The translations under genes were made by a program, and so were the position numbers. Positions 2,294 to 2,983 of a DNA stretch of 64,000 bases are shown here, one piece after another (the stretch's first letter is position 1; every line of letters begins with the position of its first letter). Origin of the DNA: Candidatus Hodarchaeota archaeon (GTDB lineage: Archaea > Asgardarchaeota > Lokiarchaeia > Sigyniarchaeales > SOKP01); contig JBHLKM010000015.1 in NCBI GenBank assembly GCA_048886685.1, positions 1 to 64,000 on the forward strand, given 5' to 3'. The notes under the pieces were generated by a model. That model was not told the DNA's origin and made no database searches. It saw only the letters and a program-made list of their open reading frames with translations.

Positions 2294-2983
2294 TCAAAAA
2301 AAATCAGTTATTTTCCTGCTAGATAACTCTTCTTCTACTATTTTTTTTACTGTTTCCCATGATTTTCTTGCGAAATCTGGAACTTTTTTATTCTTTTTTA
2401 TCCAATTTCTAAGGAAATCAACTGTTCTTTTATCCGAGGGATATCCTGATCCAAAATCTCCATATTTTTCCTTTAATTCCTCGATTAAAGTGTCTCTTTT
2501 ATCCTTAGCAATAATTGAGGCTGCAGATACTATGGGATAAAGATCATCTGCCTTATGTTTTGAAATAATTTCTTCTGGTGTATAATCTAATAAACTTAGT
2601 ATTGTTTCTCTAAATCTATCTTCATTCACATCTACCGCATCAATGTAAATAGAGCTAGGTTTTAATTCTCTGATAATTTCAGCTATTTTTAATTCTTCTA
2701 ATTTATTCATCGTAATTCTTTTTTCTTCCCGTAGATCTATTTCTTGCGGAGTAACTATAAGAATTTTAAAGGAATGACACTTATCCTTTATTAATTTTGC
2801 TAGTGCACTCCTTCTTTTAGAAGATAATTTCTTAGAATCTTTTACACCTATCTCAACTAAAAATGGAAGTTGATCTTTTTTAAAACAAACACCACATAAA
2901 ACAAGAGGGCCAAGAACGGGACCTTTTGGTGTAAAATTCGAAGTGAATTATATTCTACCAGCCTCGTCTATACCACAAATCAA
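2294..2983 (-). CDS. rnhB: Ribonuclease HII, two exons (2983-2955 and 2924-2294), 219 aa after splicing
   Basis: TTG start after GAGGAG. Spliced frame reads MICGIDEAGRGPVLGPLV...GVKDSKKL...IDA...HKAD...VSAASIIAK...GSGYPSD, ending in PIP-like RKITDFF. The ORF track shows only the last 138 aa. Confidence 0.93.
2925..2954 (-). other. Putative 30-nt BHB (tRNA-type) intron in rnhB mRNA
   Basis: UGGU-AG^A...ACCA-AA^A: 4-bp helix UGGU/ACCA with 3-nt bulges AGA and AAA, internal hairpin, in-frame TAA; excision restores the AGA codon of DEAGRGP. Confidence 0.85.

Follow-up and report, generated by a model that had tools for sequence, protein, structure and literature searches.

The rnhB gene and its insert

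The window, the whole 64,000-nt stretch of DNA analyzed here, carries rnhB, the gene for RNase HII, on its minus strand. Exon 1 (2955..2983; 29 nt) opens with a TTG start, comprises the ICGIDEAG codons and the AG of an Arg codon, and encodes the catalytic Asp and Glu of the enzyme. Exon 2 (2294..2924, minus) supplies the last base of the Arg codon and runs from the GP motif to the stop. Between them, inside the DEAGR/GP motif, lie 30 nt (2925..2954, minus) that form a candidate bulge-helix-bulge (BHB)-type intron. Translation from the TTG at 2983 gives ICGIDEAG and then Arg-Ile-stop, as an in-frame TAA (2950-2948, minus) closes the unspliced frame after 11 codons; GPVLGP picks up 30 nt downstream in the same frame. 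Deleting 2954-2925 yields a 219-aa RNase HII in which DEAGRGP, present only after this removal, is read across a junction of GCTGGTAG followed by AGGTCCC. A preliminary description of this DNA had reported an insert that splits DEAGRGP, an unspliced frame that ends at UAA after 11 codons and a 219-aa product with a rebuilt Arg, and we found the sequence, coordinates and translation to be as it gave them. Its claim of an intact PIP box holds in part: the C terminus is PIP-like, with an ITDFF core but no leading Gln, and has the same form in intronless relatives.

Exon 2 matches PF01351 (E 5e-46) and, at 210.6 bits against a cut-off of 123.3, the archaeal RNase HII family TIGR00729. The RNase HII motifs DEAGRGP, DSK, DA, KAD and GSGY are all present and are conserved among relatives, the nearest named of which are Promethearchaeota MAGs (identity up to 89%). 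In this 100%-complete assembly of 47 contigs, rnhB is single copy and RNase HI (PF00075, PF13456) has no match, so that rnhB is the sole gene for an RNase H found in this Asgard genome. No copy of the intron sequence was found elsewhere in the genome, where the best resemblance is 22/30. A Shine-Dalgarno-like GAGGAG (2993..2998, minus), read from the sequence and presumably functional, lies 9 nt 5′ of the TTG and overlaps the stop codon of the HTH regulator gene upstream. On its other side, rnhB faces a convergent nop5-fibrillarin pair; fibrillarin and rnhB meet tail to tail with a 2-nt gap (window 2291-2294), a layout kept in most family loci. Elsewhere in the window, elf1 (22063-22284) has a family match free of internal stops in this genome.

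The insert is real DNA. A contig from run X1, possibly the source sample, covers 2294-3030 with 0 differences at a depth of 40.6, and a contig from run X4, another sample of the same study, covers 2884-2973 with 0 differences. With the insert kept in contigs of two samples and the same site occupied in 80 other assemblies' genes, the assembly error that the preliminary description had named as a possible refutation is excluded.

Inserts, pairing and selection across the family

As the preliminary description had proposed, we aligned rnhB among relatives for presence, absence and covariation. We recovered 124 rnhB genes of the family by motif, requiring neither a stop nor a structure. The site carries an insert in 80 of them and lacks it exactly in 44; one further carrier gene, outside the 80, adjoins an assembly gap. 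Most of them, 76 of the 80, measure 30 nt (the other four are 29, 29, 28, and 31 nt), and all 14 genes taken from further families of this class lack an insert here. Every one of the 80 inserts contains a stop codon, which falls at the third insert codon in 68 (TAA 60, TAG 5, TGA 3) and at other positions in the remainder. The eight in-frame inserts that lack the third-codon stop all carry another (shuffle product 0.013, for genes that as kin are not independent). Read-through of the stop, whether by Sec, Pyl or recoding, would give an enzyme with a 10-residue insertion, and would suit the 76 in-frame inserts and the tRNA-Sec call in this genome. However, all three stop codons (TAA, TAG, TGA) occur, spread over five positions and often with two in one insert, inserts of 28, 29, and 31 nt shift the frame, and the extra residues would sit inside the catalytic motif, which together make read-through vanishingly improbable.

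We reconstructed the history of the insert with FastTree and quick trees of rnhB exon 2 only, in which gene transfer is not separable from intron loss. On this gene tree there are at least 15 changes of intron state, and a single clade of carriers is rejected (p-AU 1e-5). Intronless genes are nested among carriers as sisters at high support, with the insert absent precisely, pointing to repeated precise loss, regain or gene replacement. The distribution indicates a putative intron of long standing in the family, with repeated precise losses or else regains at this very site. In one carrier genome, an additional partial rnhB without the intron sits at the end of a contig (L172, G101 C7:2-433) and is probably bin contamination. 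With this rnhB as query, the matches listed at E 1e-20 include none in 22/22 genomes of one Asgard family (f16), which may reflect divergence or loss.

In this genome, two cut registers yield an identical product, a refinement of the preliminary account, and the relatives decide between them. With the cut placed where the BHB rule predicts it, between the second and third bases of the Arg codon, the junction encodes Arg in 79 and Lys in one of the 80 genes; Lys also stands here in two intronless rnhB genes. Cutting after the whole codon would give Ser in three genomes, whose inserts start with T, and the remaining registers give Lys, Thr or Ile. By this comparison, only the BHB register would restore Arg or Lys in 80/80.

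A ribosomal hop joins whole, matching codons. Since the comparison of registers in relatives places the junction inside a codon, such a hop cannot make it. This bears on programmed bypass of the kind seen in T4 gene 60, in which the ribosome would take off before the stop and land 30 nt on with the hairpin as signal. Bypass would make the same protein without RNA cutting, and it would account for the early stop, the hairpin and the 30-nt length of 76/80 inserts. We regard it as highly improbable: the landing codons, of AAA, ACA, and ATA types, match the Arg take-off codon in only 1/80 genes, the take-off codon would be Ser in three genomes, and the junction is not one of whole codons. The covariation described below also falls, between exon and intron, exactly at the BHB central helix.

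In the predicted structure, the central helix pairs UGGU in exon 1 (2957..2960, minus; the Ala wobble base and the Gly codon) with ACCA in the insert (2927..2930, minus), with 4/4 Watson-Crick pairs to UGGU 2960-2957. The insert consists of one bulge nucleotide, a 9-nt stem, a 5-nt loop, a second 9-nt stem, the 4-nt central-helix strand and two bulge nucleotides, and the bulges in this genome are AG^A and AA^A. The intron hairpin h′ (2931..2953, minus) has 7/9 pairs here and a 5-nt loop. Its first pair, beside the 5′ bulge, is an A.C mismatch in this genome and A-U in 60/72 relatives. On the exon side the helix consists of one C-G pair followed by G.G. Folded as a single sequence, this copy is no better than shuffles (z +0.42), and the BHB-constrained fold (-6.1 kcal/mol) lies 0.4 kcal/mol above the minimum (-6.5 kcal/mol). 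Since this copy, among the weaker ones of the family, folds weakly alone, the structural case rests on comparison. [quoted passage not shown] The pairing reported in the preliminary description stands for UGGU/ACCA, the bulges and the hairpin, but the hairpin is incomplete and mismatched beside the 5′ bulge; its caveat of a weak exon-side helix was well placed.

Over the 72 distinct 30-nt inserts, 87.8% of cells are paired, compared with 79.8 ± 0.5% when shuffled and 23-45% when slid. Two-sided changes number 66 versus 15; the shuffle counts are no probabilities, since related genes are not independent of each other. The central helix is 92.7% paired, falling to 24-50% when slid by 1-3 nt, and h′ is 88.6% paired with two-sided changes in 8/9 pairs. 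In 71/72 inserts, the wobble base of the exon Gly codon is paired with its partner in the intron (UG 38, CG 12, GC 11, UA 10), and three of the top four mutual-information pairs are predicted pairs. RNAalifold finds the central helix unaided and favors a larger 3′ loop.

The frequency of G-U pairs suggests that the structure forms in RNA of the sense strand. They also argue against excision of the insert from the DNA of some cells, with only intronless alleles expressed. Although the intronless genes nested among carriers, with the insert precisely absent, could be read in this way, no joint across 2925-2954 occurs in four DNA runs (searched as contigs, which drop rare variants), and there are no terminal repeats and no adjacent recombinase. 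We consider DNA excision extremely unlikely.

After the junction, 34/80 carriers read GS rather than GP (L007, L009, L010, L012, and others), by which the exon helix gains an A-U pair. RNA structure may have driven this amino-acid replacement, which probably has few origins.

Both exons evolve as parts of one coding sequence. Median exon-2 dN/dS is 0.169 for carriers against 0.166 for intronless genes, and both groups keep the motifs intact; between this genome and its nearest relatives, dN/dS is about 0.13-0.17. Variation in exon 1 among carriers is nearly all at third codon positions (0.042/0.003/0.336), as expected for coding sequence in the exon-2 frame. The relaxed selection on exon 2, together with an intact second rnhB, that the preliminary description had given as grounds for rejecting its reading was not found. 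A pseudogene, or a catalytically dead 138-aa protein made from an internal ATG at 2710 in exon 2, would fit a frame closed at codon 12, and archaeal rnhB may be dispensable. With exon-2 dN/dS equal to that of intronless genes, exon 1 coding in the exon-2 frame and no second copy, we find this reading scarcely credible.

Synonymous codon choice beside the junction differs between the two groups. The flanking Glu codon is GAG in 79/80 carriers versus 28/44 intronless genes, and the flanking Gly codon is GGA in 0/80 carriers versus 19/44. The constraint runs in the same direction in about 5/8 independent pairs and never in the opposite one (p ~0.06 per trait). A combined codon trait (p 0.008) was not counted because it was chosen after the data were seen. 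As judged from these sequences, synonymous codons beside the junction appear restricted with the intron and relaxed without it.

Splicing enzymes and the proposed pathway

The genome encodes two EndA subunits. EndA alpha (C18:52895-53490 region) keeps the Tyr/His/Lys residues. In PDB 3p1z, its best structural-database match, the crenarchaeal-specific loop aligns with a loop of this subunit; EndA beta (C5) is without the His. An L1 loop and (alpha-beta)2 EndA have been linked to the cleavage of relaxed motifs and reported in Asgard archaea (PMC5829648). The window itself contains a single-copy RtcB RNA ligase, the proposed ligase (33682..34989, plus; PF01139 E 1e-167), and archease, the RtcB cofactor (35011..35430, minus; PF01951 E 5e-42), and the host has a broad-specificity type of EndA together with a ligase. 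Reverse transcriptase (PF00078) has no match in this 100%-complete, 47-contig assembly.

Two tRNA genes in the window have non-canonical introns of similar size. The 29-nt intron of tRNA-Thr(CGU) (46236..46264, minus) has a 4/4 central helix and a geometry similar to that in rnhB, and it is an obligate substrate of EndA; the preliminary description had mentioned this intron for its weak exon-side helix. The 30-nt intron of tRNA-Lys(UUU) (47786..47815, plus), with 4/4 central and 9/9 inner pairs, has the same layout as the rnhB insert and no exon-side closing pair. Since both share this layout, the cell must already process such relaxed substrates of about 30 nt, with tRNA-Lys as the internal control.

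The insert is very probably an mRNA intron like that of cbf5, spliced by EndA and RtcB. The functional intron that the preliminary description had proposed gains support from the register, the covariation, exon-2 dN/dS and the enzymes encoded. From the observed anatomy and these features, we infer the following course of folding, cleavage, ligation and translation in vivo. The rnhB pre-mRNA would fold into a relaxed BHB with a 4-bp central helix, an intron hairpin and a weak exon helix (HBh′). An (alpha-beta)2 EndA would cut after the second nucleotide of each bulge, and RtcB with archease would join the exons, rebuilding the Arg codon of the 219-aa RNase HII. Unspliced RNA would give only an 11-residue peptide, and the in-frame stop would keep it from yielding a damaged enzyme. 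Because the insert sits in an invariant motif, it would be kept spliceable; the simplest view is of a tolerated insert.

Some observations count against such an intron, among them the weak folding of this genome's copy (z +0.42; A.C and G.G mismatches) and a length so nearly constant at 30 nt (76/80) that it is tighter than that of cbf5 introns. If transcription and translation are coupled, a ribosome that has advanced 30 nt beyond the start could open the helix ahead of EndA cleavage. RNA might also be spliced at these sites by a nuclease or ligase other than EndA and RtcB, as the motif is relaxed in this genome and the role of EndA/RtcB is a prediction. The insert is far too short for a group I or group II ribozyme. 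The geometry fits the EndA rule in more than 80 genes and in the tRNA introns of the window, and one rtcB and one EndA pair were found, so that we consider the involvement of other enzymes very unlikely.

Further inserts and known BHB introns

Without any use of structure, we compared this genome with a relative whose rnhB is intronless, taking 1,231 genes from 2.4 Mb of the latter. This homology-first scan replaced a structure-first genome scan, which was unspecific (7,083 candidates). It detected 25 frame-blocking inserts, 10 of them at the peak size of 30-31 nt, where control deletions were none. All five 30-mers show BHB geometry, against a null of 0.4% at random sites; several 31-nt hits, C15:23731 and C12:18785 among them, have poor geometry and were set aside as alignment noise. 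The reverse scan detected one insert in the relative.

Besides rnhB, at least eight further candidate inserts lie in coding genes of this genome (G000). The phosphofructokinase gene has two, each in a GGD(D) motif (C16:51416-51445 and 51731-51761, minus; 30 and 31 nt). A thiolase-family gene also has two (C3:76487-76520 and about 76537-76567, plus; 34 and 31 nt), separated by a 16-nt micro-exon; once both are taken out, its product matches the relative's protein. BHB-shaped, frame-blocking inserts occur in the genes for acetyl-CoA synthetase (C40:3422-3451, plus), a CCG/Fe-S protein (C6:98861-98890, plus), a 96-aa protein without a Pfam match (C4:207081-207110, minus) and a PAC2 protein (C2:6605-6635, minus), and the structure scan contributed a BHB-shaped insert in a probable GH38 mannosidase motif (C20:41175-41204, minus). 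Five of 10 inserts of this genome fall in the first ~20 codons. In a genus with intronless rnhB, the P-loop of an AAA ATPase contains a 31-nt BHB-shaped insert (L211, G066 C1:60001-80000).

The rnhB site itself is occupied in distant archaea, by 26 nt in a Bathyarchaeia MAG and by 26-42 nt in seven metagenome contigs (exon-2 identity 33-43%), all with a 4/4 central helix. The preliminary reading of an mRNA intron in an Asgard archaeon is supported, but with these sites and the other inserts of this genome, the insert is neither Asgard-specific nor a one-off. No endonuclease gene or recombinase lies inside or beside rnhB in the 124 family loci (~1.5 kb), and there are no terminal repeats. Below-cut-off LAGLIDADG-like neighbors occur at two of the seven distant loci (L372:503-1690, minus; L375:1-603, minus). 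It is likely, in our judgment, that EndA/RtcB mRNA splicing is routine in this Asgard family, with at least 10 introns of ~30 nt per genome and a recurrent rnhB site, possibly spread by free-standing homing endonucleases. If so, core genes would be affected, including two-intron genes with a micro-exon and many catalytic motifs, and gene callers would miss the introns.

Other LAGLIDADG sequences were noted in this genome. A free-standing LAGLIDADG-like gene with a 336-aa open frame lies by a tRNA cluster (G000 C16:73912-74364, plus; L329), and LAGLIDADG domains in long frames (1190 and 1771 aa) are probably inteins (G000 C15:64024-64281, plus; C1:320652-322529, minus).

The closest known system is the crenarchaeal cbf5 pre-mRNA intron (Watanabe 2002; Yokobori 2009, PMC2738675). 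Both introns are short, split a catalytic-motif codon and have a relaxed BHB cut between bulge nucleotides 2 and 3, a hetero-oligomeric EndA and lineage-specific precise loss. cbf5 introns measure 16-44 nt and their splicing was confirmed by cDNA (PMC2738675), whereas the rnhB intron is predicted from DNA, lies in another gene and phylum, is nearly fixed at 30 nt in the family, has changed state much more often (15 times on the gene tree) and is one of many inserts per genome. Like cbf5 introns, it interrupts a functional coding sequence (stop in 80/80, dN/dS 0.169, sole copy). The rnhB intron agrees with the cbf5 BHB intron in every testable respect, and its RNA and biochemical side is predicted.

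XBP1 offers a eukaryotic parallel, in which spliceosome-free removal of a short structured intron unblocks a frame and an RtcB-family enzyme ligates. The preliminary description had drawn this parallel; RtcB-type ligation would be shared, but the IRE1 nuclease and its stress switch have no evident counterpart. IRE1 cuts two stem-loops under ER stress (PMC13149111), whereas the rnhB motif is a predicted BHB for EndA and not twin stem-loops. The likeness is one of analogy, not of homology of the nuclease step.

Other archaeal introns share parts of this pattern. Asgard non-canonical BHB tRNA introns are alike in size, geometry, presumed enzyme and repeated gains, but the papers on them, with Freyr-, Jordi- and Atabeyarchaeaceae as focal families, cover tRNA genes only, whereas the rnhB intron would be in mRNA (PMC11291895; bioRxiv 10.64898/2026.10.13.758758). 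In the second of these, the HBh′ class is counted as canonical and 'mRNA' occurs 0 times (bioRxiv 10.64898/2026.10.13.758758). The Haloferax volcanii HVO_1309 BHB intron is likewise in an mRNA processed by the splicing endonuclease, but it lies in the 5′ untranslated leader, so no reading frame is broken (PMC7714728). Archaeal rRNA introns with homing endonucleases have BHB ends and a patchy same-site distribution, and mini-introns have been proposed as their deletion derivatives (PMC2738675); the rnhB intron differs in having no internal ORF and no endonuclease gene at the 124 family loci. In the papers found, archaeal coding-sequence splicing is confirmed for cbf5 alone (PMC2738675, PMC7714728). 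A full-text search for rnhB, intron and archaea gave nothing relevant, in keeping with the earlier statement that no rnhB intron of this type is known.

New here are the at least eight additional candidate inserts in coding genes of this genome and the inserts, 26-42 nt long, that occupy the rnhB site in distant archaea. Only if rnhB splicing is real would ribonucleotide-excision repair depend on tRNA-splicing activity, as the preliminary description had suggested. If the reading is true, rnhB would join cbf5 as a host gene, and would do so among relatives of the ancestor of eukaryotes; together with the eight or more further candidates of the same genome, it would make what looked exceptional a general step of gene expression. 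Many Asgard core genes would then be annotated as truncated or broken, and the origin, spread and precise loss of short BHB introns, a standing question, would become testable. Asgard archaea would have protein-catalyzed mRNA splicing that depends on neither group II introns nor the spliceosome.
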